Assembly (NCBI GenBank): GCA_964019425.1
Contig: OZ025785.1
Span: forward strand, 1,302,001 to 1,366,000
DNA: 64,000 nt
Reading direction: 5' to 3'
From: Flectonema sp. DT1601
Lineage: Eukaryota
The notes below the pieces were generated by a model. The model did no database searches and was not told the origin of the DNA. It worked only from the letters and a program-made list of their open reading frames with translations. Below, one piece after another: positions 4,437-62,984 of this stretch. The stretch's first letter is position 1; each line of letters begins with the position of its first letter. The position numbers and the translations under genes were made by a program.

Positions 4437-4467
<31 letters not shown>

Positions 4468-4478
4468 TCTTTTCAAAA

Positions 4479-7400: not shown

Positions 7401-7606
7401 TTAATGTTAACAGAACTGAAGCATCAGTTGTTGATGCACTAACTGACATGGCGTTACTGAGTAGGACTGAGAGACCGATAATTGATGGAGTCTTAAGAGA
7501 TTCATCATTCGGTAAAATGTCAACAACGTTATGTGTTGTTAGATTGTCTTGTGATGAAGAACTCGGGAAGTTAGCTGAAGCACTTCCTGCGAGGCATTTG
7601 AGTTAA
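4479..7606 (+). CDS. Type II membrane fucosyltransferase-superfamily (GT11/GT23/NodZ-like) protein, paralog 1; join(4479..6829,6909..6975,7052..7606)
   Basis: N-terminal TM helix. The C-terminal domain has GLGDRIGS, VGIHLRSTD, FFVASDD and DMALLSR...SSFG motifs. Two GTATGT...ACAG introns restore the reading frame, and the exon structure (67-nt middle exon) is identical in paralog 2. Confidence 0.8.
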
Positions 7607-14800: not shown

Positions 14801-15146
14801 CGATCCCAAAGCAGAACAGCAGTTTCTCGAAGCCTTCTCAGGCCGTGCTGTTTCAAACACGATGAAGACTCACTTTCCAGGAAAGCTGAATAATGATCAA
14901 CCGTTTCGAATCGCTGGTAAGTTAGGAGCCGGTAGATTTAATGTTAACAGAACTGAAGCATCAGTTGTTGATGCACTAACTGACATGGCGTTACTGAGTA
15001 GGACTGAGAGACCGATAATTGATGGAGTCTTAAGAGATTCATCATTCGGTAAAATGTCAACAACGTTATGTGTTGTTAGATTGTCTTGTGATGAAGTGCT
15101 TGGTCTGCTTGCTGAAGGGATACCAGCTCCTGCCAGGCCGCATTAA
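11889..15146 (+). CDS. Type II membrane fucosyltransferase-superfamily protein, paralog 2; join(11889..14365,14446..14512,14589..15146)
   Basis: Same architecture, motifs (GLGDRLGS, VGIHLRGTD, FFVASDD, SSFG) and intron positions as 4479-7606. Confidence 0.8.
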
Positions 15147-23957: not shown

Positions 23958-26069
23958 GTTCACTCCAGCTATTAGTAATAGTAAGCAGTAAGGCTTTGAT
24001 ATCTTCCCTTGTAAGGGAATCCTTCACAACTTTCATTCCGAATACAACTATCTCTCCAATCTTACAAAAGACTACGTCTGGTGATGAAAGAGACTCAGTC
24101 GACTATTACGACATCGGTTATTGTAATAAAGGAACTTTAACTAATAAAAATAAAATAAAATCATCCACCCTACACGACATGGTATTTGCTGACTATAAAC
24201 AAACCAGTCCATTTGAATTTACTGTGATGGAAGATCTTTGGTGTAAAAAAATAACGACATGCAGCGGGTATAGTTTTGAAAGTTTTCTAAATTATCTTCA
24301 GCTGCTTAAATTTGATAACTTAATACGATCTGACTACAGAATTAACATGGAATTGGCGGGGATTCCGTTGGTTTCAACACACGAATTTCGAACTGAAACC
24401 CGAAACAGTCAATGCAGTAGTCAACTTGAACGAGGTCAAAATAATATTTTATTATTTCCTGAACTAGTCTCAAACTCCGTCAAAGGTGTTCCCGTTGGAG
24501 GATGTGAATCAGGAATGTCCTTTATATACAACCATTATGACTTCTTTGTCTACTACAACACTCATTCACATGAGTCTGGAGAGGTTTTCATAACTGGGTT
24601 TGAAGTTCATCCTAGAAGCATTCTTTCTTGGAAATGCTCAAAAGGAGGTGTTAAAGTGTTTTCAGATGTAAAAAATGGTCCGAGAAAAGTTCAACTAACT
24701 CTGAAAAAGGTGTCGTGGACGTACTCTGTTGCGTGGATTAGAAAACCTGACAGCACTTGGTCCTCTTCTGTTGACTATTTGTTTAGAAGTAGTCGAATGA
24801 ATAAATCAATATCTGAAGAAATAGCATCAGTTCACTGGTTTCGATCAATCACGTCACTTTTGATTATATCGACTTGTTGTTCGATCGTATTTTTGTTGTT
24901 AAAAATTCACATCCGATTAGAACTTCAAAAAATTGATCTTTGCAAAGATGAAACCCTCTCACCCCAAAACATAAAGGGACCAAAAGGATGGTTCACAGTA
25001 AGACACATTCTACTGGAGCCTCCAAAGCATCCTTCTTTATTTATTTATTTTATATCGATTGGTAGTCAATTGTGTTTTATAATCGTATCGCTGGTGATTT
25101 TCATACCGTCGGGATACTTCTTTCCTTCTTGTAGGCCTTCAGTACCATTGACAGTGTCGTTGTTGTTTATTTTATCAAATTCATTGTGTGGATATGTTGC
25201 TGGAAGTTTAACTGTTGTTCTTCAGCTATCGGAGAGGTTTTCTCAGAAGATTGTGGGAGTATCACTCGTGATTCCATTGTTTACAATTATTACTTTACAC
25301 GCGATAGGTCGTTGTACCTGGTTGGTATTATTTGGCGTCTGTGTAGTTTCGTTGGTTGGAATCTCTGTTGCTTTATTCGGTGCTTCTGTTGCTGTTCGCA
25401 ATTGCCGAAAACAACGAAAGCATTCTGCTCCTGTTAGGAATACTGTGAGAAGTCCAATACCACTTTCGAATATTGCCATGGTCTTGGTATGGATTGTTTG
25501 GTTTATTGTTGTTGGTTAGCATACCTCTGGTGTTTTAAACGAGAAAATAACAACAACAACACAGCTTCCTGGAGTGTTTCCCTTTGTCGTTGCGAACTTA
25601 GAATTGAGATTGATAATGAAAGCAATCTGGCAGGTATGTTTGTTTATAAACAGTCATCCTGATTAAAGAGTTATGAAGGTATTATCTAAACAACACACAG
25701 GGACAAGTATCGAGTCTCATTATTTACTCTGAAGTATCGATTATTGTCATTGCGATGGTAGCATGCATGAGCTCAGTGTTGTTCGTTTATTACTCTCTCT
25801 GTTGTGAAGAACATCGTTGGTGGTGGAGGTCATTCTTATCATCGGTTGGTCTCGGTATATACACCTTCTTGTACGCAGTTAAACATCACTTCTCAAAGTT
25901 GGAATTCACTCGTAGTTCTGACATGACGTTTTATTATTTGTGTGTTGTTCTGATTTCGTTTATTATTTCAACGGTGGCTGGGTCTCTGGGATTTCTGTGT
26001 AGCTGGTTGTTAGTGAAAAAACTCCATACTGCAGTTGGAAAGGTTAGAAATACTACCACAGATCCCTAA
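23954..26069 (+). CDS. Transmembrane 9 superfamily (nonaspanin/EMP70) protein; join(23954..25486,25565..25633,25701..26069)
   Basis: Motifs DYYDIGYC, YRINMELAGIP, IYNHYDF, WTYSVAW, VHWF and, after splicing, GVFPFVVANLEL...IWQ and EEHRWWWRSF. Two GTATG...ACAG introns. Confidence 0.9.
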
Positions 26070-26466: not shown

Positions 26467-27693
26467 ATGAAGTTAATTGTCTCAGCTGGATTTTTGATTA
26501 ATTTCGTAGTCGGAATCGAGTATACTCCTGAGTTTGAGAAGAATGTGAAGGCAACTTTTATACATTCAAAGTTCAAAGACACTCCGTCAATCCCAAGAGA
26601 ACTCGACCATCAGGTTATTTCTGAGGATGAAGAAAAAGAATGGTTCGGAGATCTCTTCTACTTACAAGAGAATAGTGCTATTCAACAGATTCTAACTTGT
26701 GATGCTTGCTGGGAAATATCAATTGAAGCAGAGAGAATCTTAAGAAATCAATTACGGTACTTAACACCACGTGCGGCAGTACAACATCTACAAAGTGTAA
26801 TCTGTCTGCAAGCACCACCTCTACTTAGATTAGTGTTAGATAAGGATAATAAAGTTCTGCCTAAGTTTGGTCGTGGAAAGAAAGCTGTTGCTGGAGGTTG
26901 GGCGCAACAGGTTACTCACACGGCATGCACCGAGTGGATTCATAGCCACGACTACCATACACTTCTATCAATGGCTATTGATATTTCAAAAGGAAAAAAT
27001 CCACCTCGTCTATCAGCATGTGATGAAGAGGTTGGCTGTCACTGGCTTACACCTGGTCAAAGAACTGAAGCAGCGATAAAAGTAAAGGAAGCCAATTATC
27101 ACCGACCTGAACAATTCTACCCAGAACTTTACGGACTTCCTCAATTTCGTAAGATGGGACTCACAATGTCAAAAGAACGTAAATACTATCTGTTATACAC
27201 TGAAGAAAGAGCTAAGTTCTTGGCTCATATTGATCCTAATCACCCTCATAAATACGAACTTACAACGATGGAGTTAATCTCGTATGTTTTGTTTTTATTT
27301 TAATAAAAGTCATTCAGCTTCAATAAAAAAAAAAACACACAAAAAAAAAAAAAAAAAAAAAACAGAATGTTCATAGAAGAGAAGAACAGAGACAAGAGAG
27401 AGGAAAAGCTTCAGGAGGATATGAAAATAGCTTCAGAGAACGCAAATAAGGTATGCTTTTCATCTTTGTGTTACTTTTTTTTATTGAGTTTGGGACATAA
27501 AAATTTATACTATCAAAAAACCCGACAGCGAATTGCTCTTCAAGCTAAAATAAGAGAAATGCACGCAAAGAAAGCAGAAGCACGTAAGAAGGCTAAGGGA
27601 GAAAACCAAGAAGAAGAACCTACTTACTCTGTGCATGATGATGAAAATGATGAGAGCGAAGATATTAAAATCGATGAAAATGAGGATTTGTAA
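26467..27693 (+). CDS. Secretory-pathway protein with a saposin/Canopy-like Cys pattern; join(26467..27281,27366..27450,27529..27693)
   Basis: Signal-peptide-like N-terminus, CDAC...C...C...C...C pattern, C-terminal NEDL (ER-retention-like). Two GTATG...CAG introns keep the frame. Confidence 0.6.
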
Positions 27694-29607: not shown

Positions 29608-32427
<2,820 letters not shown>

Positions 32428-40883: not shown

Positions 40884-41304
40884 ATTTCAATATCTACCAC
40901 ATCACCACCAACACCATTACCGCACAACCACCATCACTGCTGAGGAAAATTCTGTTCTGGGGACAGAGGGGTACACTTTAAGGACGATATGCAGAGAAAT
41001 CTGTTCCTTTTCCCCTTTTCTTACCCTGTGCACTGTTACTTTTGTTGTTTCCCAAGAGAAAAGAGAAAAAAAAAAAAAAAAAAAAAAAAAAGGAAGAGAT
41101 GACATGTTCTTCAGAATGTTTAATTTTCTTCTCAAATCTTCACCGCATGAATTCTGCGTAGTTTTGTTGTCTTAATTTACTAGTGACTTTCAGGTAATAA
41201 AAAGGGATCAGGGGAAACACTAAATAAATTAAACAAAGCATTCAGACATGATGAATTAAAGTCGGTAGATTTATTTCCCAGATTATTTTAAAAAAAAAAA
41301 AAAA

Positions 41305-41874
41305 ATGTCGTTTTACACATTCATTGTCGGTGTCATCTTTTTTATAATTGGGCTACCCATGTTTATTGTCTTCACTCTGAGATGGAGGGACTCTGTAGAT
41401 TTTGAAGAGAATAGTACTTTGACTGATTGCACTGTGGTTAAGGTAAAGACGATCCAAACCTGCACAGATGACAATGGGGCTTACACCGGTACTAGATGGG
41501 GTTATAATGTAGAAGTACCTCTTTGTAATAATAAGAACCTTTACAGAGGTGATGACACCTGTAACGATGCTGCTATTTCACTCGGATCTACTCGTCTTTG
41601 CAGAGTTCACGATGACTGTGAAACTTTTAAGTGGAAACACCAAACTGAAGTTAATAAGAATGTCTCGTTTGTGGGTGCTGGAATCCTGGGGGTGTCGTTT
41701 GTTTTATTCGCTGTTGCGTTTTATTTGTGTTTGAAGAAAAAAAATAGTCATTCAACAACGAGGGTTACTGCTGCTCCAGAAGTAAGCAGTCCGAATGACA
41801 ACAAAGTGATGGACATCCCAAATAATAAAACCAACCCAACTTGTCCTGATGATTATTCTGACTCAGTGGTATGA
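41305..41874 (+). CDS. Two-TM protein with Cys-rich extracellular loop, copy 1
   Basis: 189 aa. TM-RW...C.V...C...WGYNV...C...YRGDD.C...C.VHDDC..FKW.H-TM pattern shared by six neighbouring ORFs. Confidence 0.85.
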   Translation: MSFYTFIVGVIFFIIGLPMFIVFTLRWRDSVDFEENSTLTDCTVVKVKTIQTCTDDNGAYTGTRWGYNVEVPLCNNKNLYRGDDTCNDAAISLGSTRLCRVHDDCETFKWKHQTEVNKNVSFVGAGILGVSFVLFAVAFYLCLKKKNSHSTTRVTAAPEVSSPNDNKVMDIPNNKTNPTCPDDYSDSVV

Positions 41875-42404
41875 AGACATTATTTATATTTATAGTGCGA
41901 TTATTCATAATGATTTTTTCTGAATGAAATTTAAAAAAAAAAAAAAAAAAAAATGGAAAGCAAGAAAATTTTCCCTATCCTTTTTTCCTTTTTCTGTATT
42001 TAAATAAAGGGCATTAAAATTCCTTTATTTTTTCCCCCTTTTAAAAGGGGGTACAACGGATAATATGATTCTAGTAATTATTATTATTATTATTATTATT
42101 ATTTTTTTATTTTTTATTATTATTTTTATTATTATTATGTTTTTTTCTCCCAAAGTTTTCCTTCATCTGTCATCTTGACAAGGATGTGGAAACTAACTTC
42201 AAAAAAAAAAAAAAAAAAAAAAAAAACATTTCTTTTTTTTTATCTCATTTAGTAGCTCTCAAAGAAGAGATCAGGTGCAGTTATATTCCGCCTTGTTTTT
42301 GTAACTTCCTAGGGTAGCGACTTGTACTTTCTAAGGGGTTGATACTTGTAAAAAAAAGTGTCCATTAAGATATTTCCTTCACAGTTTTAACTTTTAACAT
42401 AAAG

Positions 42405-43001
42405 ATGCGTCATAGTCGAGCTATTCTTGCATTTTTCGGTTGTGTAATGCTCATAATTGGGTTACCCGTATTTATTGTCTTCACTCTGAGATGGAGAAAC
42501 TCTGCAGATTTTGAATCGAACAGTACCTCGACTGAGTGCCGAGTAGTAAAAAGGAAGACTATTATGACTTGTAAAAGAGAAGATGGTGACTACCTTGGAA
42601 CACAGTGGGGATACAATGTCGAGGTAAGGTTTTGTAATAACAAAATACTTTACAGAGGTGATGATGAGTGCAATTACTCTGCTATTCCAGTTGGAGAGGT
42701 ACGTCCATGCAGAGTCCACGACAACTGTGACAGCTTCAAGTGGAATCACGCAACTGAAAAAAATAAAAACAGCTCATTCGTTGGTGCTGGATTCCTGGGG
42801 GTGTCGTTTGTTTTATTCGCAGTTGCATTTTATTGCCATTTGAGAAAGAAAAAAGTAGTGCCACCAACAACCACAAGGCAAACACCACACCAAACAAGTA
42901 ACCCAGATGATGTCGAATTGGAAATAAAAAGTGATCCCGAAATTATAGAGCCCGAGCAACCCACGAAGGGATGTCCCGATGATATGGACTCTGTAGTTTA
43001 G
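42405..43001 (+). CDS. Two-TM Cys-loop family protein, copy 2
   Basis: 198 aa; same family pattern. Confidence 0.85.
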   Translation: MRHSRAILAFFGCVMLIIGLPVFIVFTLRWRNSADFESNSTSTECRVVKRKTIMTCKREDGDYLGTQWGYNVEVRFCNNKILYRGDDECNYSAIPVGEVRPCRVHDNCDSFKWNHATEKNKNSSFVGAGFLGVSFVLFAVAFYCHLRKKKVVPPTTTRQTPHQTSNPDDVELEIKSDPEIIEPEQPTKGCPDDMDSVV

Positions 43002-43544
43002 GATTGTTTTTGTTTTGTAGTAAAGTTATATGAGACTTTGATTCTTTCATGTTTTTCTCTTGCCCTTCTGATCCATTTCTTTTGGGTCGATTTATTTACA
43101 ATAAAGGCGCTCTTCAGCTTTTTTATTCTCCCATATTTATCAAACACGTTTGATGATGTCTTTCTCTTGTTTTCTTTTGTAATATGAAAAGAAACTTTTC
43201 TTTCTTTCTTGTTCGTTGATTAAAATATTTGGGAATAAAAAAAATAAGAAAAGTAGTACTTTCATAAACCCTCGTGGTTGTATGAGTTTTATAATGTTTT
43301 TTTTTCTCCCAAGGTTTTCCTCCTGGTATCAGTATGTAGAAACTAACTAGGAAACTTCAAAAAAAAAAAAAAAAAAAAAAAAAACTTTTTTTATTTTATT
43401 TGGTAGCTCTCAAGATCAAATCAGGTGCAATTATGTTCCACCTTGTTTTTGTATCTTCCTAGAGTTCTTTCTAAGGGGTTGATACTTGTAAAAAAAAGTG
43501 TTAATTAGGACATTTTCTTCACAGTTTTAACTTTTAACATAAAG

Positions 43545-44144
43545 ATGCGTCATAGTCGAGCTATTCTTGTATTTTTTGCATGCGTAATGCTCATAATTGG
43601 GTTACCCGTATTTATTGTCTTCACTCTGAGATGGAGAGACTCTGTAGATTTTGAAGAGAATAGTACCTTGACTGATTGCCGAGTGGTACAAAGAAAGACC
43701 ATAAAGATCTGTGAAAACGAAGATTACACTTATAGAGGAACCACGTGGGGATACAATGTCGAGGTAAGGTTTTGTAATAACAAAATACTTTACAGAGGTG
43801 ATGATGGATGCAATTACTCTGCTATTCCAGTTGGAGAGGTACATCCATGCAGAGTCCACAACAACTGTGACAAGTTTAAGTGGAATCATGAAACTGAAAA
43901 AAATAAAAACGGCTCATTCGTTGGTGCTGGATTCCTGGGGGTATCGTTAGTTTTATTCGCAGTTGCATTTTATTGCCATTTGAGAAAGAAAAAAGTAGTG
44001 CCACCAACAACCATAAGGCAAACACCACACCAAACAAGCAACCCAGATAATGTCGGAGTGAAGGTGGAAGTAAAACGTGATCCCGAAATTATAGAGCCCG
44101 AGCAACCTACGAAGGGATGTCCCGATGATGGCTCCGTAGTTTAG
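43545..44144 (+). CDS. Two-TM Cys-loop family protein, copy 3
   Basis: 199 aa; closely similar to copy 2, including the upstream region. Confidence 0.85.
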   Translation: MRHSRAILVFFACVMLIIGLPVFIVFTLRWRDSVDFEENSTLTDCRVVQRKTIKICENEDYTYRGTTWGYNVEVRFCNNKILYRGDDGCNYSAIPVGEVHPCRVHNNCDKFKWNHETEKNKNGSFVGAGFLGVSLVLFAVAFYCHLRKKKVVPPTTIRQTPHQTSNPDNVGVKVEVKRDPEIIEPEQPTKGCPDDGSVV

Positions 44145-44172
44145 GATTTTTTTTTTTTTTTTTTTTTTTTTT

Positions 44173-45316
44173 GGGAAAAACTATAATTCCACAGAAAAAG
44201 TTTCTGAAACGTCCGATCTCAATACAAAAGTTTCCGAAATGGACAGCTATTTTTTTTATTTTTTATAACTTACTGTTAGTGCATTTCGGGGTCCCCATTG
44301 CCAAGGTCATGGAGCCTCCCGCATAAGGTAAGGGCATCCGACGAGATGAGTGAAATACACCGAACCTGGGTCTCGGCCTGACTGTGCCCCTGGATCCGCA
44401 TAGCTCGGTATAGGGATGGACGAATTTCGTGTAGAGAGACTTCTTCCCCGACTTATCAGCTTATAAACCATGAGTTCAGAGTGTATTAAAATACTAGAGG
44501 TGCATCATAAGCGTCAGATAGGAGACAAGAGAAATCCAACATCATGAATCTTTAGAAGAGTGATACAGTTCGGTATGTGTGCAGGGCCGGGTCACCTACG
44601 CAGAGACAAGTCTCCGCTACACGTCGTACCAACCAAGATGAGGTATCAGAGCGCGAAAACGAAGTATACATGATCAGCGGCCTAGGGCTTGACAAGAATA
44701 GCTGTGGAGTGGCGAAACCATTTAATGTTCTCAAGTCTGAGATCACCTCACTGAGCCACACAGTACTGTCGTTTCGGAGTTTCTGTGAAAGTAGCCCACG
44801 GAACACTTTTCTAAAGATTCAATCAGCCGAACTACTCCGCTACTGACTTTCACTTGATTAGCGAGCTACTAGTATATATTATTATGTCACCTGTTGAAAA
44901 GGGAGTACTAAGAGGTTGATTCAGGCCCTGCACGTATTAGTTGTAATTACGGTACCTGCCTTACCTTACTTTATTTCTTCCCTGGTTGAGAACCAACCCA
45001 TCTCAGCCGTCCCAGTGAACGAAGAAAAACTTTGTTTTCTTACCGAACAGCGAAAAAAAAAAAACACTTTCGGTGAATAGCGAAAGACAAACCTTCTCCG
45101 TTTACTGAGCAGCGAAAATGAAATTATTGGACCCTACCATTGCGAAAAAAAAAAGCTGTTCACTTGCGAAAGGTTTTTTTTGGGTGCAGGCAACTAGGCA
45201 ACTGAGAATATTTTGTAATATGTTTTTTTTTTTTTTCCTTTTGCTGTCCATTCGGAAACTTTTATGTTGAGATCGGATATTTCGGTAACATTTACGTGGA
45301 ATTAGAGGGTTTTCCC
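44173..45316. mobile_element. Non-autonomous TIR DNA transposon (MITE, Mutator-like) of about 1.14 kb
   Basis: Left end gggaaaaactataattccac...tccgatctcaatacaaaagtttccgaaatggacagc. The reverse complement of the right end reads gggaaaaccctctaattccac...tccgatctcaacataaaagtttccgaatggacagc, giving an imperfect TIR of about 75 bp. Poly-T on both sides is compatible with a TSD. No transposase ORF. Confidence 0.8.
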
Positions 45317-46418
45317 TTTTTTTTTTAAAAAAAAATATTTTATCGCTATTGTGAGAGGCTTTTGCTTTCTCCCATTTTTTTCATAATATTTGACGTCCTC
45401 GTCGATAGCACTCATCTTGTGTAGGGTAGGCTTATGTTGTTAGTAAGTTAAAATAAGCAGTTTCGTTTTGTATTTTGTTACGCACAAAACTCGTTGCCTT
45501 GTTTCAGTTATTCTTAAGCAATTATTCTGAGCTTGCTAATCCAAAAAATTAACAATTTTGTGTTGCGTCTGTTTTTAATATGCTGTGTTAAATTATTACT
45601 ATTAAAGTAGTATTTATAATAAAACATGGGAGTAATATTCTCAGTATATAAAAAAAAAAAAAAAAAACTCCAAATATTCAAAAAAAAAAAAAGCGACCGA
45701 AATCCTCCATTGGTGTACTCCATGTTTTCTTTTTTTTTTTTAAACCTCCTAGTCCCACAATAATATCAACACATACACACAGTTACCGTAGGTATGGATA
45801 TGCTTGATTAGACTGAGCATCAGCATCTCTCAGATTTTACCTGCCTTTCTAGTGATCACCTTTGACATGTTGGTAGCAGAGCTCACCATCTCACTAATAC
45901 TAAGCAACTCCTCCCTTTGATACTTCTGAGAAGTTCTTTGTTCATCTGCGGGAAGCTGCAGCATTCTTTTACTTATCTCTATTTTCTTTTTGTTCTCACT
46001 TTTTCTGTACTAAAATTAATGATACCAACTAACTATCGGTATTTCCACAGTCGGGAAAGATTTTTTAACTTTAGTCCGAAAACCAACCATTATTTGTTTG
46101 TTGTCCTACGGACTTTTGCATTTGATTGAAATCTTGTTTATTTTCTTTAATAAACTGATAACAATTAACGACACCTATCAGTCTATTCCACACGTGTATT
46201 ATGGAACAGCAGAACAATTGTGTTTTTTTATAACTTTTTCTTTAGTGCACTTTTTTTAATAATAAACTCGTATTCTATCTATAACGGTTTCTCACCGCAT
46301 TGTCTCCCCTTACTTTCTTCGCTGAAGATGGCTGGGTAGAGTAGCAACTAACTAGTACTTTCTAAGGGGTTGATACTTGTAAAAAAAAAATTGTTAATTT
46401 CGCAGTTTCAACACAAAG

Positions 46419-47006
46419 ATGGGAAAGATATCACTTAAAAGTCTTGATATATTTTTTAATTGCTCATTGTTCATAATTGGGTCATATGTATTTATTGTCT
46501 TCACTCTGAGATGGAGAAACTCTGCAGATTTTGAATCGAACAGTACCTCGACTGAGTGCCGAGTAGTAGAAAGGAACCAAATAATGGCCTGTGGACGACG
46601 AAAATACGGAAGAGGGTACAAATACGGTGCCGTAGTAAAATATTGTAATAACAAAATACTTTACAGAAGTGATAATGAGTGCAGTCGTCGTATTCCAGTT
46701 GGAGAGGTACGTCCATGCAGAGTCCACAACGACTGTGACAAGTTCAAGTGGAATAACGACAATACAATAAACATAACCGCCACGTTTGTTGGTGTTGGAT
46801 TACTGGTATTGTCTGTTTTATTTGCGATCACAATTTATCGCTGTTCGAGAAAGACAAAAGTAGTGCCATCAACAACCACAAGGCAAACACCACACCAAAC
46901 AAGTAACCCAGATGATGTCGAATTGGAAATAAAAAGTGATCCCGAAATTATAGAGCCCGAGCAACCCACGAAGGGATGTCCCGATGATATGGACTCTGTA
47001 GTTTAG
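46419..47006 (+). CDS. Two-TM Cys-loop family protein, copy 4
   Basis: 195 aa; C-terminus and 3' flank nearly identical to copy 2. Confidence 0.85.
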   Translation: MGKISLKSLDIFFNCSLFIIGSYVFIVFTLRWRNSADFESNSTSTECRVVERNQIMACGRRKYGRGYKYGAVVKYCNNKILYRSDNECSRRIPVGEVRPCRVHNDCDKFKWNNDNTINITATFVGVGLLVLSVLFAITIYRCSRKTKVVPSTTTRQTPHQTSNPDDVELEIKSDPEIIEPEQPTKGCPDDMDSVV

Positions 47007-47618
47007 GATTGTTTTTGTTTTGTAGTAAAGTTATATGAGACTTTGCTTCTTTCATGTTTTTCTCTTGCCCTTCTGATCCATTTCTTTTGGGTCGATTTAT
47101 TTACGATAGAGGCGCTCTTCAGCTTTTTTATTCTCCCATATTTATCAAACACGTTTGATGATGTCTTTCTCTTATTATTTTTGTAATATGAAAATAAAAT
47201 TTATTTTCTCTCTTGTTCGTTGATTGAAATATTTAAGTAGTATAAGATAACAACATATTCCGTCGTCTAAGATGTTACTGGTGACTATTAATACTAAATA
47301 TCGGTTCTTACGTTAAGGACCACTTTTGAAACTGATTTACAAGAAATTTAAAACAAAGTCCCCAGAACTTAACTAGTGTAATATTTCACTGTTTTTATTT
47401 TCTCAAATGCATCTTAATTATCTCATATACTAACTATTAATAATCCAAGTCCACCTTGCTCGCTGACGTCTTCAGAGGTTGATTGGCTGCAGGAAAAACT
47501 CATGCCTGAAAACTTCTATTTTAGTCAAAAAGCGTCCGAGTTTTCTATACACCCATCTTTTTTGTGAACATAGTATTTGGTTTCCTTCCAGGAAAAAAAA
47601 AAAAAATAAAAAAAGAAA

Positions 47619-48209
47619 ATGTTGTTTTGCGGCTCGGCATTTATGTGTTCCACCAGCGTGATCTTTTTCATAATTGGGTTACCCGTATTTATTGTCTTCA
47701 CTCTGAGATGGAGAGACTCTGTAGATTTTGAAGAGAATAGTACCTTGACTGGTTGCACTGTGGTGGGTATTAAGACGGTTAGGAAATGTATAGGTAAAGG
47801 GGGAAGCACTACCGGATATGAATGGGCGTATAATGTTCATGTTGCTTTATGTGATAATAAAATTCTCTACAGAGCTGATGATAATTGCAATGGGGAGGCA
47901 CTTCAAAATGGAACGACCCACTCTTGCAAAGTCCACAACGACTGTGACAGCTTCAAGTGGAATCACGACACAGAAGCGAATAAAAACAGCTCATTTATTG
48001 GTGCTGGGTTTTTAGCAGCGTCGTTCCTTGTTGCTGTTGGTGCTCTAATAATTGCTGTAAGAGATAGGGATATTTGTTTTTCAGCACTACCAGTGGCGCG
48101 AACTAACGTCAAAAAGATTAAACGACGACGGATCAAAAAGACCAAAGACACAGCTACGGAAAACAATACCATCACAAAAATGGATCCGGAGCCACTTGAA
48201 TGTGTCTGA
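47619..48209 (+). CDS. Two-TM Cys-loop family protein, copy 5
   Basis: 196 aa; family pattern with a distinct C-terminal tail. Confidence 0.85.
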   Translation: MLFCGSAFMCSTSVIFFIIGLPVFIVFTLRWRDSVDFEENSTLTGCTVVGIKTVRKCIGKGGSTTGYEWAYNVHVALCDNKILYRADDNCNGEALQNGTTHSCKVHNDCDSFKWNHDTEANKNSSFIGAGFLAASFLVAVGALIIAVRDRDICFSALPVARTNVKKIKRRRIKKTKDTATENNTITKMDPEPLECV

Positions 48210-48922
48210 GGTGGTAGACGCGTGTATTCTTTACTCTTTGTTATGTCTGTATTAACTAAGTCACTTTGTACTGCTTCTCTTAAAAGTCTTCGACTTGTTT
48301 TCCCATTGGTTCTGTCATCAATTTTTATTATTGACGTGTTTTATTCATTTTTATTCATTAAATCAAAAAAAAAAAAAAAAAAAAAAACGATTGCTATGCT
48401 ATTTCATTTTTTTGGTATTTGCATGGCTTTTTTTTTTTTTTTTTTTCACGGACGAAATCGGAGAAGCTATTCAGATTTAAAAAACCGTTATTTATTAAGT
48501 ATCCAAACGATCTCTTACACTGCCTGCTTCGTGCATGTGGTCGGTCCAGGTGTCGCGTTCTCCTGTTCAATTCAGGTCTCTTCTAGTCTCACCCATTATG
48601 GTTCCGGATAACTGGGACCCGACTTCGATTATCTATCTCCCCATGCTCCAGTAGTTATTACTGTCTGGGATCAACATATTAAGGCTTTTCTGAATGGTTT
48701 CTTTTTTTTTCGTTGCTAATAAGCAGCATCGACGATAACACCCTAACTTAGTTATCGTACTTTTTTTTTCTTTTAAATTTATGTATTAGTCAAATTAAAT
48801 CATTATGATGTACTATTCTTACAGGAAACACTATCTTAGAGGAGGGGTTTATCGCTTTCATTTTCTGGCCTATTCAGCATGGTACTTCTTTTTATTCTTT
48901 TACAGTTTTATTCTTAATAAAA

Positions 48923-49432
48923 ATGAATACTGTTGCCCCACATTTAACGGCAACAGCTAGTCTATTGATATGCTTGGTTGGTTCTCCTGTAACTGTTGTG
49001 TTCTATGTAAGGTGGGATGCGTCTAAGGAGTACGAGAGAAATAGTTTCATAGCTGACTGTATTGTTCTCAGATCGGAATCAGCTGAAAAGTGTCGCGGTA
49101 AGAGCGGAAACCACGTTGGAAACAGGTGGGGTTATAATGTTGTGATCCCTCTGTGTGGGAATGACACAATTTTATACAAATCAGACGATACTTGTAACCG
49201 CAATCCGATTCCTATAAATACAACTAAACAGTGCTGGGTAGAGAATGATTGTAGTCAGTTCAAATGGTCTCACAGTACAACTTACAATGTACGTGGGTTC
49301 ATTGCTGGACTTGTAGTCCTTTTTGTCTCTTTCGTGATGTTCTTGATTGGTGGATGTCTCTTCGTAAAGTCCTTAAAAGAAGAACGTTCACAGTTGGCTC
49401 GTCCTGTTACCTTTGAAATGGGAATGGTTTAG
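48923..49432 (+). CDS. Two-TM Cys-loop family protein, copy 6 (most divergent)
   Basis: 169 aa; retains RW, six Cys, WGYNV, DD.C and FKW.H. Confidence 0.8.
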   Translation: MNTVAPHLTATASLLICLVGSPVTVVFYVRWDASKEYERNSFIADCIVLRSESAEKCRGKSGNHVGNRWGYNVVIPLCGNDTILYKSDDTCNRNPIPINTTKQCWVENDCSQFKWSHSTTYNVRGFIAGLVVLFVSFVMFLIGGCLFVKSLKEERSQLARPVTFEMGMV

Positions 49433-54243: not shown

Positions 54244-57200
54244 ATGGCAGGAGCCGGTGGGTTGGCTAACCTGTACGGCACTGAGAAGGATAGAGTAAAC
54301 TGTCCTTTTTACTTTAAAACTGGTGCCTGCAGACACGGTGACAAATGTACAAGATTACACAACAAACCAGTAACAAGTCAGACTCTTATGCTTCCACATA
54401 TGTACCTCAACCCGATCGCTGCTCCAGTAGTTAACGCTCAGGGAATGTATGTATTCGATCTCTTTTTTTTTTTGTTTCCCGTACTCGTATTTGGACTTTT
54501 GTTACTTAGGCAGGTTTATCAATTCCGTGATGATAAAAACTAATAATTTGGCAATTTGCGTGTGAACTTCTTGTTTTGATCAGAATAATTAGAAGACGAG
54601 ACTGACATACTTCACTCTTTTTCTCTCACTCGTTGTTGTTGTTGTTGTTATTGCATTCCCCTTCTTCATCTTAATATCTCGTGATGACAATGACACATTA
54701 GTGTAGTGCGCATCTGACCGTTGGAATTCTATTCCTCGGGATGGGAATACAACTGACTCGCTCTTGCTGACAATACTGCTGCTTCTGTTCCTGTTCGATT
54801 CCATGATGACAAAAACTAATAATTTGGCAATTTGCGTGTGAACTTCTTGTTTTGATCAGAATAATTAGAAGACGAGACTGACACACTTCTCTCTTTTCCT
54901 CTCACTCTTTGTTGTAGCTGTTGTTGCATTCCCCTTCTGCATCTTAATATCTCGTGATGACAATGACACATTAGTGTAGTGCGCATCTGACCGTTGGAAT
55001 TCTATTCCTCGGGATGGGAATACAACTGACTCGCTCTTGCTGACAATACTGCTGCTTCTGTTCCTGTTCGATTCCGTGATGACAGAAACTAATAATTTGG
55101 CAATTTGCGTGTGAACTTCTTGTTTTGATCAGAATAATTAGAAGACGAGACTGACATACTTCACTCTTTTTCTCTCACTCGTTGTTGTTGTTGTTGTTGC
55201 TGTTGTTGCATTCCCCTTCTTCATCTTAATATCTCGTGATGACAATGACACATTAGTGTAGTGCGCATCTGACCGTTGGAATTCTATTCCTCGGGATGGG
55301 AATACAACTGACTCGCTCTTGCTGACAATACTGCTGCTTCTGTTCCTGTTCGATTCCATGATGACAAAAACTAATAATTTGGCAATTTGCGTGTGAACTT
55401 CTTGTTTTGATCAGAATAATTAGAAGACGAGACTGACATACTTCACTCTTTTTCTCTCACTCGTTGTTGTTGTTGTTGTTATTGCATTCCCCTTCTTCAT
55501 CTTAATATCTCGTGATGACAATGACACATTAGTGTAGTGCGCATCTGACCGTTGGAATTCTATTCCTCGGGATGGGAATACAACTGACTCGCTCTTGCTG
55601 ACAATACCGCTGCATCTGTTCCTGTTCGATTCCGTGATGACAAAAACTAATAATTTGGCAATTTGCGTGTGAACTTCTTGTTTTGATCAGAATAATTAGA
55701 AGACGAGACTGACACACTTCCATCTTTTCCTCTCACTCTTTGTTGTTGCTGTTGCATTCCCCTTCTTCATCTTAATATCTCGTGATGACAATGACACATT
55801 AGTGTAGTGCGCATCTGACCGTTGGAATTCTATTCCTCGGGATGGGAATACAACTGACTCGCTCTTGCTGACAATACTGCTGCTTCTGTTCCTGTTCGAT
55901 TCCATGATGACAAAAACTAATAATTTGGCAATTTGCGTGTGAACTTCTTGTTTTGATCAGAATAATTAGAAGACGAGACTGACATACTTCCCTCTTTTCC
56001 TCTCACTCTTTGTTGTAGCTGTTGTTGCATTCCCCTTCTTCATCTTAATATCTCGTGATGACAATGACACATTAGTGTAGTGCGCATCTGACCGTTGGAA
56101 TTCTATTCCTCGGGATGGGAATACAACTGACTCGCTCTTGCTGACCATACTGCTGCTTCTGTTCCTGTTCGATTCCATGATGACAAAAACTAATAATTTG
56201 GCAATTTGCGTGTGAACTTCTTGTTTTGATCAGAATAATTAGAAGACGAGACTGACATACTTCCCTCTTTTCCTCTCACTCTTTGTTGTAGCTGTTGTTG
56301 CATTCCCCTTCTTCATCTTAATATCTCGTGATGACAATGACACATTAGTGTAGTGCGCATCTGACCGTTGGAATTCTATTCCTCGGGATGGGAATACAAC
56401 TGACTCGCTCTTGCTGACCATACTGCTGCTTCTGTTCCTGTTCGATTCCATGATGACAAAAACTAATAATTTGGCAATTTGCGTGTGAACTTCTTGTTTT
56501 GATCAGAATAATTAGAAGACGAGACTGACACACTTCCATCTTTTCCTCTCACTCTTTGTTGTTGCTGTTGCATTCCCCTTCTTCATCTTAATATCTCGTG
56601 ATGACAATGACACATTAGTGTAGTGCGCATCTGACCGTTGGAATTCTATTCCTCGGGATGGGAATACAACTGACTCGCTCTTGCTGACAATACTGCTGCT
56701 TCTGTTCCTGTTCGATTCCATGATGACAAAAACTAATAATTTGGCAATTTGCGTGTGAACTTCTTGTTTTGATCAGAATAATTAGAAGACGAGACTGACA
56801 TACTTCCCTCTTTTCCTCTCACTCTTTGTTGTAGCTGTTGTTGCATTCCCCTTCTTCATCTTAATATCTCGTGATGACAATGACACATTAGTGTAGTGCG
56901 CATCTGACCGTTGGAATTCTATTCCTCGGGATGGGAATACAACTGACTCGCTCTTGCTGACCATACTGCTGCTTCTGTTCCTGTTCGATTCCATGATGAC
57001 AAAAACTAATAATTTGGCAATTTGCGTGTGAACTTCTTGTTTTGATCAGAATAATTAGAAGACGAGACTGACATACTTCACTCTTTTTCTCTCACTCGTT
57101 GTTGTTGTTGTTGTTGCTGTTGTTGCATTCCCCTTCTTCATCTTAATATCTCGTGATGACAATGACACATTAGTGTAGTGCGCATCTGACCGTTGGAATT

Positions 57201-60196
57201 CTATTCCTCGGGATGGGAATACAACTGACTCGCTCTTGCTGACAATACTGCTGCTTCTGTTCCTGTTCGATTCCATGATGACAAAAACTAATAATTTGGC
57301 AATTTGCGTGTGAACTTCTTGTTTTGATCAGAATAATTAGAAGACGAGACTGACATACTTCACTCTTTTTCTCTCACTCGTTGTTGTTGTTGTTGTTATT
57401 GCATTCCGCTTCTTCATCTTAATATCTCGTGATGACAATGACACATTAGTGTAGTGCGCATCTGACCGTTGGAATTCTATTCCTCGGGATGGGAATACAA
57501 CTGACTCGCTCTTGCTGACAATACCGCTGCATCTGTTCCTGTTCGATTCCGTGATGACAAAAACTAATAATTTGGCAATTTGCGTGTGAACTTCTTGTTT
57601 TGATCAGAATAATTAGAAGACGAGACTGACACACTTCCATCTTTTCCTCTCACTCTTTGTTGTTGCTGTTGCATTCCCCTTCTTCATCTTAATATCTCGT
57701 GATGACAATGACACATTAGTGTAGTGCGCATCTGACCGTTGGAATTCTATTCCTCGGGATGGGAATACAACTGACTCGCTCTTGCTGACAATACTGCTGC
57801 TTCTGTTCCTGTTCGATTCCATGATGACAAAAACTAATAATTTGGCAATTTGCGTGTGAACTTCTTGTTTTGATCAGAATAATTAGAAGACGAGACTGAC
57901 ATACTTCCCTCTTTTCCTCTCACTCTTTGTTGTAGCTGTTGTTGCATTCCCCTTCTTCATCTTAATATCTCGTGATGACAATGACACATTAGTGTAGTGC
58001 GCATCTGACCGTTGGAATTCTATTCCTCGGGATGGGAATACAACTGACTCGCTCTTGCTGACCATACTGCTGCTTCTGTTCCTGTTCGATTCCATGATGA
58101 CAAAAACTAATAATTTGGCAATTTGCGTGTGAACTTCTTGTTTTGATCAGAATAATTAGAAGACGAGACTGACATACTTCACTCTTTTTCTCTCACTCGT
58201 TGTTGTTGTTGTTGTTATTGCATTCCGCTTCTTCATCTTAATATCTCGTGATGACAATGACACATTAGTGTAGTGCGCATCTGACCGTTGGAATTCTATT
58301 CCTCGGGATGGGAATACAACTGACTCGCTCTTGCTGACAATACTGCTGCTTCTGTTCCTGTTCGATTCCATGATGACAAAAACTAATAATTTGGCAATTT
58401 GCGTGTGAACTTCTTGTTTTGATCAGAATAATTAGAAGACGAGACTGACATACTTCCCTCTTTTCCTCTCACTCTTTGTTGTAGCTGTTGTTGCATTCCC
58501 CTTCTTCATCTTAATATCTCGTGATGACAATGACACATTAGTGTAGTGCGCATCTGACCGTTGGAATTCTATTCCTCGGGATGGGAATACAACTGACTCG
58601 CTCTTGCTGACAATACTGCTGCTTCTGTTCCTGTTCGATTCCGTGATGACAAAAACTAATAATTTGGCAATTTGCGTGTGAACTTCTTGTTTTGATCAGA
58701 ATAATTAGAAGACGAGACTGACACACTTCCATCTTTTCCTCTCACTCTTTGTTGTTGCTGTTGCATTCCCCTTCTTCATCTTAATATCTCGTGATGACAA
58801 TGACACATTAGTGTAGTGCGCATCTGACCGTTGGAATTCTATTCCTCGGGATGGGAATACAACTGACTCGCTCTTGCTGACAATACTGCTGCTTCTGTTC
58901 CTGTTCGATTCCATGATGACAAAAACTAATAATTTGGCAATTTGCGTGTGAACTTCTTGTTTTGATCAGAATAATTAGAAGACGAGACTGACATACTTCA
59001 CTCTTTTTCTCTCACTCGTTGTTGTTGTTGTTGTTATTGCATTCCGCTTCTTCATCTTAATATCTCGTGATGACAATGACACATTAGTGTAGTGCGCATC
59101 TGACCGTTGGAATTCTATTCCTCGGGATGGGAATACAACTGACTCGCTCTTGCTGACAATACTGCTGCTTCTGTTCCTGTTCGATTCCATGATGACAAAA
59201 ACTAATAATTTGGCAATTTGCGTGTGAACTTCTTGTTTTGATCAGAATAATTAGAAGACGAGACTGACACACTTCTCTCTTTTCCTCTCACTCTTTGTTG
59301 TAGCTGTTGTTGCATTCCCCTTCTTCATCTTAATATCTCGTGATGACAATGACACATACTCAGAGGGATGATAATCTTATTAATATCTTGCAATGGTCTT
59401 TAGAAAGTTCTTTGATATGAGTAATATTTTGAAACTAATATCTCCTTTGCAAGGTGATCTATTTATAATAAACAACCAACAGCCCTGAAGAGTACGACAA
59501 GCGTTACCTAAGAGATCACTTTGAAGATTTTTACGAAGACACTTTTGAAGAATTGATGAAGGTGTGTATTTAACAAAAAAGTTTTATTTTGTTGTAAAGT
59601 ATTCTGCTAAGATTTACTTAAAGAAAGAGGAAAAAAAATATAAAAAAAACAAACAGCTTGGAGAAATATTAGAGCTGAATATTGTTGACAATGTCTGTGA
59701 GCACTTGTTGGGTAATGTTTACGTAAAATTTGCGACGGAAGAGGATGCTGAAAACGCTCATAAGAATCTTGCTGGAAGATTCTATGCAGGTAGAATGCTT
59801 ATGCCAGAATACGTTCCTGTAACTGACTTCCACGAGTCAAGTTGTAGACAATACGAGGAGAATGAATGTGAAAGAGGAGGATTGTGCAACTTTATGCACT
59901 TGAAGGGTGTTTCTAAGAAATTGCTCAGAGACTTGTTTTCAGAACAAAAAAAACTGTACAAAGACAGACGTAAGGAGAGAAAGAGAAAGGAGAGAGCTGA
60001 AGGTAGAGCACCCTCTGAAGAAGATACCAAAGATAGAGTTGTTCGTCAAGATAACCCAGATGATGATGATGAACCTGTTTTTGGAATGGGACGGCCAGTC
60101 GCAGCAGCTAAACGTGAGCGAGAGACATCTGAAGAGCGTCGTGTCCGTCTTCGTGATGCTTATGAAAAAAAGCACGGTAAGCGTCAATGGGTCTAA
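54244..60196 (+). CDS. U2AF1: Splicing factor U2AF 35-kDa subunit; join(54244..54446,59483..59561,59657..60196)
   Basis: Exon 1 has [32 protein letters not shown] (ZnF1). Exon 2 has (I)[26 protein letters not shown]. Exon 3 has [25 protein letters not shown]...[23 protein letters not shown] junctions join in frame (AT|C = Ile). Confidence 0.95.
54527..54605 (+). ncRNA. Box C/D snoRNA A (first of 18 copies; last at 59189-59267); double guide for the SSU Am (U16/snR87) and LSU Gm (snR75) sites
   Basis: Box C RTGATGA. Guide GGCAATTTGCGT before D' GTGA is complementary to SSU GCGCAAAUUGCC. Guide TAATTAGAAGACGAG-A before box D CTGA is complementary to LSU CUCGUCUUCUAAUUA. Confidence 0.88.
54681..54770 (+). 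ncRNA. Box C/D snoRNA B (first of 17 complete copies; last at 59067-59156; truncated 18th at 59340-59357)
   Basis: Box C GTGATGA. Guide CATTAGTGTAGTGCGC-AT before D' CTGA is complementary to SSU GCGCRCUACACURAUG. Internal hairpin GTTG..TATTCC/GGAATA.CAAC. A second putative guide TGACTCGCTCTTG precedes the terminal CTGA. Confidence 0.8.
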
Positions 60197-60620
60197 TCCA
60201 AAGAGATTGATTAGTGTTCCCCCATCAAACCCCTTTAGTTTAATTAGTGTTTTTGGCCAACCACACACTGGCTTTAAATGGTGTGGCAAGTCACCTTAAC
60301 AATCAGAATAGGTGCTCCATTCGCCAAGTAGCACACCAGAAAAAAGACTCAATGGAAATTACTTCGCGTCGTTTATTATTTTCGGTTATTTTGGTATTGC
60401 TAGCACCACATCTTTGTAGACAGGTTGTTTTAAATATGAAACTAATTCGGTTTATTTTTTTGTAGCGAAGGTTTCTGGTGTCATTCTCAACAAAAAATAA
60501 TCAGTCAGGCGAGTAGGAATCTTTGCAATTTTATTGAATGATTGGAAACTATTCGATGGAAAGTTACATAAAATCAAGTTCCTCTCAAAGCTATACACAA
60601 ACCCCTACAAGGAAATAAAA

Positions 60621-62984
60621 ATGAGATCCTCACTTTGGTGTCTGCTGTTGACGCTTCCGACGTTGGTGTCCAGTCAGCAGATTTGGAATTCGATCAACTG
60701 CCCGGTGACAGGAAACAGCTGTTCGTACACTAACGACAAGGCAGTGGATGAGGCGGTGACACTTTTCTTCCAAGCGGAGCAGCAATCTGGAGTGGCATCG
60801 ATCTCGTGCACAGTCGGTAATGCCGTTCCCTGCTACAGATCGTACCCGAACTCAGACACGGGGAGTGCAGGAGGATGCTTCTTCGTTATACCGGCTGGAG
60901 CTGAGATGAGCTGCGATGTGCAGGGAACCGTCAAAGTGATCGGAAGCCACGTGTCACCACTGAAGGGAGCGTTGTTGGACACCAACACGAAGACCATTTC
61001 GTGTGATAATGGAGACTGCAGCTACAAGAACTCGGGAGGTGCGGATCTCTGGGTGACCCAACGCTTGGCTGCCCGCGGCTATGGAATCAACGAATTCAGC
61101 TGCAAGTACGGAAGCATGGAAGTCTGCGCCTACGCCGTCAACGGTACTCAGGGAGGGTTCTCCTGCAATTTCATCCTTCCGGCGGGAGCGGACCTGAAGT
61201 GTGAGATCAAGAGCGGTTCATTTGACGGTACTTCTGCTGCGTTTCCATTCAAAAAGAATGTCTTGCAATTGGACTCGCAGACTGTTCCGATGAACTGCCC
61301 GAACGTCAGCTACCCGAAACCGAACATGTGCGACTGCGCGTACACGAACGACCGGGAAAATGATTTGGTGGTGTCGGTAGTGTCGTCGAGCACCAACGAG
61401 GACTACAACGCGTTCCACTGCTACTACGGAGGAGCGAATGTCTGCTCGTGGGGATCAAACCGCAACGACAAGGGAAACCGTGGAGGGTGCTACTTCGTGT
61501 TGGCTGCTGGGCAGGACTTCAGCTGCGCAATGCAGTGGGGAGCAGCTTCGTTCTCGGTGACGGTGGCGAAGCAGTTGGAAGGGTCTCTCTGGGGAGCTTC
61601 GTTGGAGACAGCAAGGAAGGCGAACCCAACGAGGCTGCCTCCCCGTGCTGCTCCTCTGGAGGAACCAGTTGACCAGTCGAAGAGTCTCAACCAGCACCAG
61701 GAACTCTTTGCGAAGTGGAAGGCGCACCACTCGAAGACCTACTCATCGAAGGCTGAGGAAGAGAAGCGGTTCAACAACTTTCGCAAGCACTTGAGTCTTT
61801 TTAATTCGAAGGAGGGACTTCCAAACAACCTCGCGGATTGGTCGAAGGCCGAGTTCGAGACGCACCTGAGAGACTGCGCGTTCCCAACTGGAGACCTGTC
61901 GCCACCACCTGCTGAGCGAATGATCACTGAGGAGGACATTCGCAGCATGCCGGAGTCAGTCGACTGGAGAACAAAGGGAGTAGTGACCCCAGTGAAGGAT
62001 CAGGGACAGTGCGGTTCTTGCTGGTCGTTCTCCACCACGGGAGTGACTGAGTGCGCGTGGGCAATCGCCGGAAACAAACTGCAGAGCCTGTCAGAGCAAA
62101 AGCTAGTGAGCTGCGACACAAAGTGCGATGGCTGCAATGGAGGATGGCCGTACCAGGCGATCCAGTGGACTGCTGAAAACGGAGCGGACACCGAGGCGTC
62201 GTACCCATACGTATCTGGCAACGGTAACGTGCCTGGGTGCCACGCAGGGAGTCCAGCGGATGTGAAGGTGACTGGATACTACAGCGTGAACAGAACAGAG
62301 GAGGCGATGGCCGCAACTGTCGCAAAGTACGGACCCATCTCAATTGCTCTCGACGCGATGACTCAGATCTGGTGGCCATACACGGGAGGTATCGTCAGCA
62401 ACTGTTGCAACAAGCAAGCTGACCACGCTGTTCTTATTGTCGGGTACGGTATCGACAAGGGTCAGAAGTACTGGTTGATTAAGAACTCGTGGAACGCAAA
62501 CTGGGGAGAGAATGGATACATCAGACTGGAGAGAGGAAGTGACCAGTGTGGTATTACCTCTGCTCCAGTCCAAGCGCTTGTCCAGGGAGGTGTCACTCCA
62601 CCACCAAGACCGCCACCTTCGACCGCATGCCCTCCGGAGACCACCACGACCGTTGTCGGAAACACTCACACATGCACCTGGACCAACAACACTAAGGGAG
62701 TGAAACTTCCACCTGGTACATCACAGCTCCATGAGTACTGTGACTACTTCTCAAAGGGAGGATACTTTGGGTACTCGTGGAGTGTTGCAAGTGCCAGTCA
62801 CTTCGACTATCCTTGTCCTCCACACTCCCGCTTCGGGACCGCCACCGGTAACGTCGGATTCTGCACCTTTCAAAACGGATCTGACCCAACTACTGGCGTC
62901 TATGTGCCGACTGGTGGAACTGTCGACTGCAGCAAGTTGGCCCAGGGAACTTTTTCCTACAGCTTCACTGCCGATAAGTTTTAG
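60621..62984 (+). CDS. Secreted papain-family (C1A, cathepsin L-like) cysteine protease with three N-terminal Cys-rich repeats and a C-terminal extension
   Basis: Signal peptide; I29-type prodomain (FAKWKAHHSKTYSS..EEEKRFNNF...NNLADWS..EF); mature domain with PESVDWR, QGQCGSCWSF, DHAVLIVGYG and YWLIKNSW; PPPRPPP linker and Cys-rich tail. Confidence 0.93.
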   Translation: MRSSLWCLLLTLPTLVSSQQIWNSINCPVTGNSCSYTNDKAVDEAVTLFFQAEQQSGVASISCTVGNAVPCYRSYPNSDTGSAGGCFFVIPAGAEMSCDVQGTVKVIGSHVSPLKGALLDTNTKTISCDNGDCSYKNSGGADLWVTQRLAARGYGINEFSCKYGSMEVCAYAVNGTQGGFSCNFILPAGADLKCEIKSGSFDGTSAAFPFKKNVLQLDSQTVPMNCPNVSYPKPNMCDCAYTNDRENDLVVSVVSSSTNEDYNAFHCYYGGANVCSWGSNRNDKGNRGGCYFVLAAGQDFSCAMQWGAASFSVTVAKQLEGSLWGASLETARKANPTRLPPRAAPLEEPVDQSKSLNQHQELFAKWKAHHSKTYSSKAEEEKRFNNFRKHLSLFNSKEGLPNNLADWSKAEFETHLRDCAFPTGDLSPPPAERMITEEDIRSMPESVDWRTKGVVTPVKDQGQCGSCWSFSTTGVTECAWAIAGNKLQSLSEQKLVSCDTKCDGCNGGWPYQAIQWTAENGADTEASYPYVSGNGNVPGCHAGSPADVKVTGYYSVNRTEEAMAATVAKYGPISIALDAMTQIWWPYTGGIVSNCCNKQADHAVLIVGYGIDKGQKYWLIKNSWNANWGENGYIRLERGSDQCGITSAPVQALVQGGVTPPPRPPPSTACPPETTTTVVGNTHTCTWTNNTKGVKLPPGTSQLHEYCDYFSKGGYFGYSWSVASASHFDYPCPPHSRFGTATGNVGFCTFQNGSDPTTGVYVPTGGTVDCSKLAQGTFSYSFTADKF

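Follow-up and report, generated by a model that had tools for sequence, protein, structure and literature searches.

Tandem genes for a likely double-guide box C/D snoRNA within a U2AF35 intron of a diplonemid

The window analysed here, the whole stretch of DNA at its length of 64,000 nucleotides, carries a gene for the small subunit of U2AF (U2AF35), and the first intron of this gene is occupied by a tandem array of two kinds of candidate snoRNA gene, termed A and B. The features are given below in window coordinates, with box C and box D of A read directly from the sequence.

54244..54446, + strand: U2AF35 exon 1, coding part, with the CCCH zinc finger
54447..59482, + strand: U2AF35 intron 1, GT-AG, 5036 nt, holding the whole array
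54509..54515, + strand: two AG dinucleotides after a U-rich tract (tract and AGs together 54460-54515), 62-66 nt after the intron 1 donor and just upstream of the first box C
54522..59357, + strand: tandem array (Tandem Repeats Finder: period 273, 17.6 units, 96% matches)
54527..54605, + strand: snoRNA A (first of 18 copies), 79 nt with box C and box D included
54527..54533, + strand: box C of A
54550..54561, + strand: D' guide of A; predicted target, the SSU A corresponding to Am436 in yeast, Am484 in human and Am479 in Leishmania
54562..54565, + strand: box D' of A, a GTGA variant, which aligns with D' in snoR24 and snoZ101 of Rfam
54576..54582, + strand: C'-like heptamer of A, two letters off consensus; the final six letters are also present after D' in Leishmania LM32Cs1C1
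54587..54600 (pairing 54586-54600), + strand: D guide core of A; predicted target, the LSU G equivalent to yeast Gm2288 and T. brucei LSU-beta Gm552
54602..54605, + strand: box D of A (CTGA)
54681..54770 (3' end approximate), + strand: snoRNA B, copy 1 of 17 complete; box C at 54681, CTGA at 54714, 54753 and 54767
59483-59561, + strand: U2AF35 exon 2
59562-59656, + strand: U2AF35 intron 2, removed in the spliced model
59657-60196, + strand: U2AF35 exon 3

Elsewhere the window holds a polyubiquitin gene of 12 near-identical 228-bp units (29685-32420), a tandem family of at least six similar two-transmembrane, cysteine-containing ORFs of about 200 aa (41269-49432), a duplicated multi-exon gene pair with a long identical central block in common (4449-7606 and 11874-15146), and an ORF that by eye resembles a papain-family cysteine protease with a long, cysteine-rich, repeated N-terminal extension (60501-62984). 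Outside the array, no snoRNA-like guide was found anywhere in the 64 kb.

On the sense strand, the array separates the CCCH zinc-finger exon from the RRM exon of the U2AF small subunit. Removal of 54447-59482 and 59562-59656 yields a protein of 273 residues that aligns without gaps to the transcript-derived Flectonema neradi protein P0141 (255/273 identical), and it was concluded from this alignment that the array fills a real GT-AG intron of 5036 nt. The genes have the placement of intron-encoded snoRNAs, on the sense strand and within a spliced intron. The two AGs at 54509-54515 are, to judge from their position, a possible alternative acceptor, in cis or in trans; splicing to them in cis would introduce a premature stop. 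Among the presumed splice sites of the window, of which the U2AF35 introns are the only ones validated, the cis introns (6820-7080, 14340-14600, 25460-25720, 27280-27560 and 59562-59656) have a U-rich 5' half and an A-rich 3' end before the AG, and the trans-splice acceptors before start codons are pyrimidine-rich. U-rich AGs near donors occur elsewhere in the window too. F. neradi has two U2AF35 isoform ORFs, P0141 of 273 aa and P0122 of 181 aa, the latter starting only at the end of exon 2, and the short isoform fits an alternative handling of U2AF35 intron 1.

Ribosomal protein L27 of the window is 95% identical to an F. neradi transcript protein and 72% identical to that of Diplonema papillatum, with proteins labelled Hpha and Rhum, presumably Hemistasia and Rhynchopus, next in order. 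F. neradi we take to be a diplonemid, which fits the neighbouring named matches, and by these protein comparisons the host is a diplonemid close to F. neradi and not a kinetoplastid. The initial annotation had argued for a euglenozoan host from the guides of A, on the ground that the rRNA variants they imply are kinetoplastid-like. The phylum was right, as the diplonemid protein matches indicate; the narrower label does not fit, the host being diplonemid by its proteins and the Leishmania guides implying an LSU site that differs by one letter. Nor does the SSU variant alone serve as a diagnostic of the host: the 109 rDNA loci that carry it comprise 13 that match a kinetoplastid probe, 6 that match a diplonemid probe, 63 that match a general eukaryote probe and 27 that match none. 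One locus, L079, combines the SSU variant with a yeast-type LSU site. Many of the 63 general-probe loci may be euglenozoan, and the probes do not separate out euglenids.

In each of the 18 copies of A, a box C (RUGAUGA) stands close to the 5' end and a box D (CUGA) close to the 3' end. Between them are D' and C' boxes, the C'-like box with two deviations, and divergence of these internal boxes is tolerated in box C/D snoRNAs according to PMC3116282. The fifth base upstream is T54557 before D' and C54597 before D, so that the +5 rule picks an A for the D' guide and a G for the D guide. A terminal stem, which is usual though not universal, was absent from the folds of copies 1 and 2, and folding against shuffled sequences gave no signal (z -0.07 to -0.46; for A, z -0.07). 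An Rfam scan of the 64-kb window found no family at its gathering score. The best sub-threshold matches to A were plasmodium_snoR24 (26.6 against 55 bits) and snoZ101 (18.9 against 44), both aligned on the D' guide, and snR75 was aligned on the D guide (12.5 against 40 bits), with E values for A of 0.23-3.1. These alignments put the guides of A on the consensus guides of snoR24/snoZ101 and snR75, and the changes fit euglenozoan rRNA letters. A resembles the U16-type families in the predicted action of its D' guide, yet, at scores below gathering, is not filed as a member of snoZ101 or plasmodium_snoR24. It also falls outside snR75, both by score and because its guide stands before box D rather than D'.

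Target pairing was assessed on the rRNA of relatives, drawn from two sources. The first, 109 loci (L001-L109), was chosen by the SSU motif itself, which makes SSU matches within it circular, and it was used for the other sites. The second comprised 12 loci fetched with a published diplonemid probe (described in PMC7970053) and not by target; an Rfam scan covered 7 of these. SSU motifs are present in four of them (L119, L121, L127 and L128), and the A site is covered only by L127 and L128, in each of which both diplonemid probes are present. These four diplonemid-type contigs are found inside bacterial genome or MAG records, apparently as contamination. A tree built from 52 of the 109 loci (57 were dropped for a short flank or for want of the SSU motif) contains no reference sequences with names and gives no taxonomic assignments.

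Both guides of A, and the targets that the initial annotation had given them, were recovered on this rRNA. Directly upstream of D', where a complement of 10-21 nt is expected with the target at +5, the guide forms 12 bp (11 Watson-Crick) on the SSU of the diplonemid L128, its fifth base on the predicted A, a result equalled by 12 of 1000 shuffled guides. The site is the same in L127, likewise diplonemid, and 12 bp are also formed on L060 and L028. The D guide pairs at 15/15 positions, all Watson-Crick, with the LSU of L031 (0/400 shuffles) and forms 12 bp with that of L049 (1/400), its fifth base on the predicted G; both loci are non-diplonemid by probe. The LSU site was reached in just 5 of the 109 loci, none of them diplonemid by probe (perfect pairing in L031 and L051, 12 bp in L049, mismatches in L041 and L079), and in L128, which is diplonemid, the LSU extends only to model position 1954 of 3401, short of the D-guide site. 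In a window-wide control over 192 candidate guide positions, at least 13 Watson-Crick pairs were attained only by three guides of the array. The D' guide of A, with 11, was level with two unrelated background sites, and its case therefore rests on the known methylated A and on the register it shares with the guide of Leishmania LM32Cs1C1. No extra base-pairing element for A was found near either target site, and viral contigs, searched for the joint presence of the two guide cores of A, yielded eight matches, none with a box C upstream.

The guides known for these two sites are, as tabulated, divided among separate RNAs. In Table 1 of PMC8817022, which bears out the yeast and human numbering first proposed, Am436 (snR87) equals human Am484 (U16) and is served by AtU16 in Arabidopsis and by CD8, also a guide for Am466, in Dictyostelium; Gm2288 (snR75) is served by AtU15, together with Am2271, and by Dictyostelium CD14, with no human entry. 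For trypanosomatids, where 11 of the 18 files of PMC13487219 were searched for the relevant rows, supplementary file 11 lists LM32Cs1C1 for Leishmania SSU Am479 and LM36Cs1C2 for LSU3 Gm534, each for one site only and with the sites scored as methylated, and TB10Cs1C4 for T. brucei Gm552, the T. brucei cell for the SSU site being blank. The guides of A are in the same register as those of LM32Cs1C1 and of LM36Cs1C2/TB10Cs1C4, which in that file sit before D'. The further claim that yeast and human use separate snoRNAs for the two sites holds for yeast and, on these tables, extends to Leishmania, Arabidopsis and Dictyostelium; for the human half, the table names no guide for the Gm2288 equivalent. 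A comparison with trypanosomatid entries, of the kind also suggested at that stage, found each site with its own RNA in Leishmania. The combination is thus absent from Leishmania, yeast, Arabidopsis and Dictyostelium as covered by the guide tables of PMC13487219 and PMC8817022, and it may exist in Euglena or in older T. brucei catalogues.

With U16, snR87, AtU16, CD8 and LM32Cs1C1, A has in common the guide core at D' and the target A, and with LM32Cs1C1 also the C'-like hexamer. With snR75, AtU15, CD14, TB10Cs1C4 and LM36Cs1C2 it shares guide core, register and target G, but the Gm2288-type guide, which precedes D' in both Rfam snR75 and the trypanosomatid RNAs, lies before the terminal D box in A, and the 3' extra-pairing element described for snR75 (PMC3116282) has no place in A. 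AtU15 is listed as joining its Gm2288-equivalent guide with Am2271 instead. A survey of fungi (PMC5824354) describes targets as moving between snoRNAs, with only sporadic D'/D shifts, and reports that in Pezizomycotina snR87 has acquired a predicted LSU target at D (25S-1042) and retained the one at D'. The second guide that accompanies a U16-type RNA is accordingly LSU 25S-1042 (predicted) in Pezizomycotina, SSU Am466 in Dictyostelium, none listed in Leishmania and the Gm2288 equivalent in A. Because snR87/U16-type RNAs carry different second guides by lineage, the pairing in A is less surprising than first scored: the gain of a lineage-specific second guide by RNAs of this type is already described, and A is a further variant.

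From its boxes and guides, the number of copies, their place in the intron, the host group and the pairing to relatives' rRNA, we regard it as likely that A, the first of 18 copies within U2AF35 intron 1 of a diplonemid, encodes a box C/D snoRNA. Its predicted role is to direct 2'-O-methylation at two positions, the SSU A equivalent to Am436, from D', and the LSU G equivalent to Gm2288, from D. As far as its sequence goes, the gene is real and probably functional, and the combination of its two guides is specific to the lineage. Alternatively, A may be real with only one of its guides directing methylation, the other pairing being vestigial or acting as a chaperone in pre-rRNA folding or processing. 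Just 8 of 68 fungal box C/D families keep two conserved guides by the count of PMC5824354, D' and C' of A deviate from consensus, and silencing of TB10Cs1C4 is reported to lower Gm552 and to disturb pre-rRNA processing as well (PMC6411936). This reading is nevertheless improbable, given that both guides of A obey the +5 rule on known methylated bases and are invariant in 18/18 copies. Diplonemid 28S rRNA is described in PMC10161547 as not fragmented.

Every unit also contains B, in 17 complete copies, the last extending to 59160, and an 18th that is cut short; none of its 90 columns varies among the 17 units. The initial annotation, sound as to the guides of A, had mentioned neither B nor the 18-copy intronic array. 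The guide before 54714 forms 16 bp on diplonemid SSU (0/1000 shuffles), where it is predicted to target the G that corresponds to Gm1865 of Leishmania and Gm1931 of T. brucei. B has the same guide core and register on this G as LD18Cs1C3 and TB10Cs4C4, and its remaining sequence is different. The guide before 54753 has a match only in L041, outside the mature SSU (2/400 shuffles), and none in diplonemid rDNA. For a second guide of B there is a weak 9-bp match on diplonemid SSU, 51 nt upstream of the main site (19-25/400 and 123/1000 shuffles). A candidate pairing of the second guide with the LSU of L049 (13 pairs) was rejected, as it falls in a variable segment without counterpart in three other LSUs. 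Positions 54650-54660 in the upstream flank are by eye complementary at 10 of 11 letters to 54741-54751 inside B, and may form a processing stem or an alternative fold.

The D' guide and box of A occur exactly 18 times in the window, against 0.14 expected, and A and B together amount to 35 complete snoRNA genes in one intron. Thirteen of the 18 A copies are identical; the variants affect the first base of box C (54527; either G or A, each of them permitted) and two positions shortly after the box (54534 and 54536), so that none of the three varying snoRNA columns is inside a guide. When the 17 complete units are compared, variation is seen in 3 of 169 columns within the snoRNAs and in 25 of 113 in spacer and flank (Fisher p 2e-8), or in 13 of 101 spacer columns when the GTT microsatellite is left out (Fisher p 3e-4), p values that are too small in that the copies share history and were treated as independent. 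This confinement of variation almost entirely to the spacers, the retention of all boxes in every complete copy and the position of the array on the sense strand of a transcribed intron make it highly unlikely that the repeat is a satellite of snoRNA-derived sequence, with most or all copies silent and the working genes elsewhere, even though recent amplification alone would be expected to give near-identical copies and gene-adjacent tandem repeats outside mature mRNA are reported to be common in D. papillatum (PMC10161547).

A search of sequencing runs listed two, X1 and X2, each with a small share of the window, and no RNA run. In both, which come from different studies, the 273-bp unit appears as a contig that closes on itself by 273-276 bases; either run may relate to the source sample. 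Their coverage of the window is limited to the repeat unit and a short cyclophilin stretch, and the circularised contigs fit a tandem repeat that exists beyond this assembly. That the snoRNAs are real and the 18-fold array an artefact of assembly is, in view of these self-joining contigs and of the 11 distinct units in mosaic order among the 17 complete ones, hardly credible.

Intronic snoRNAs of animals and plants are housed singly or as a short cluster in each intron. The present genes are like these in lying on the sense strand of an intron in a housekeeping gene of RNA metabolism, and unlike them in that 35 complete genes of two kinds fill a single intron. In the polycistronic clusters of trypanosomatids and Euglena, as described in PMC3273796 and PMC2784804, several snoRNAs form a unit and the unit is repeated, as here, but trypanosomatid precursors are trans-spliced and polyadenylated (PMC3273796), whereas this array is in a cis intron of a protein-coding gene. 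Cis introns are given as confined to two or three genes in trypanosomatids (PMC11613528, PMC3273796). A literature search, made by title or abstract start and with subscription papers mostly outside it, found no description of diplonemid snoRNAs and nothing relevant on repeated intronic snoRNA clusters or on U2AF35 as a host gene; the word 'snoRNA' is absent from the main text and seven supplementary files of the D. papillatum genome paper (PMC10161547).

On the preferred reading, that of a double-guide snoRNA, the array would be transcribed as part of the U2AF35 pre-mRNA, and the A and B units would be cut out within the pyrimidine-rich spacers and trimmed to protein-protected C/D ends. Fibrillarin, which D. 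papillatum encodes, would then methylate whichever rRNA base pairs with the nucleotide five positions ahead of D' or D, as in established box C/D biology. In origin, A may be a U16/snR87/LM32Cs1C1-type RNA that gained at D an snR75-type guide, which other species have at D'. A higher dose of the A and B RNAs would follow from their tandem amplification. Their release may proceed from the excised intron or, as the two AGs at 54509-54514 behind the U-rich tract faintly hint, by way of an alternative acceptor.

U2AF35 is itself the factor that reads the AGs of 3' splice sites. It is conceivable, if unlikely, that diplonemids have a hybrid system of snoRNA expression, in which a trypanosome-style cluster sits in the U2AF35 cis intron and the choice between a proximal acceptor and one 5 kb away yields either U2AF35 mRNA or a polycistronic snoRNA precursor, coupling methylation dose to the level of a splicing factor. 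TB10Cs1C4 and TB10Cs4C4 are placed by PMC6411936 among the abundant T. brucei snoRNAs linked to rRNA processing, and under such a system the match of the amplified guides to these RNAs would explain the 18-fold amplification.

The pairing in A is one more case of the reshuffling of snoRNA guides, including the rarer move from D' to D. In an abundant marine group that includes a genetic model, the locus offers three concrete predicted sites of methylation and two RNAs that could be probed for. More interesting than the guide pairing is the amplified cassette in the intron. Its arrangement is intermediate between the intronic snoRNAs of animals and plants and the repeated clusters, with trans-spliced precursors, of trypanosomatids, and it could reveal how snoRNA genes were accommodated before the near-total loss of cis introns in kinetoplastids.
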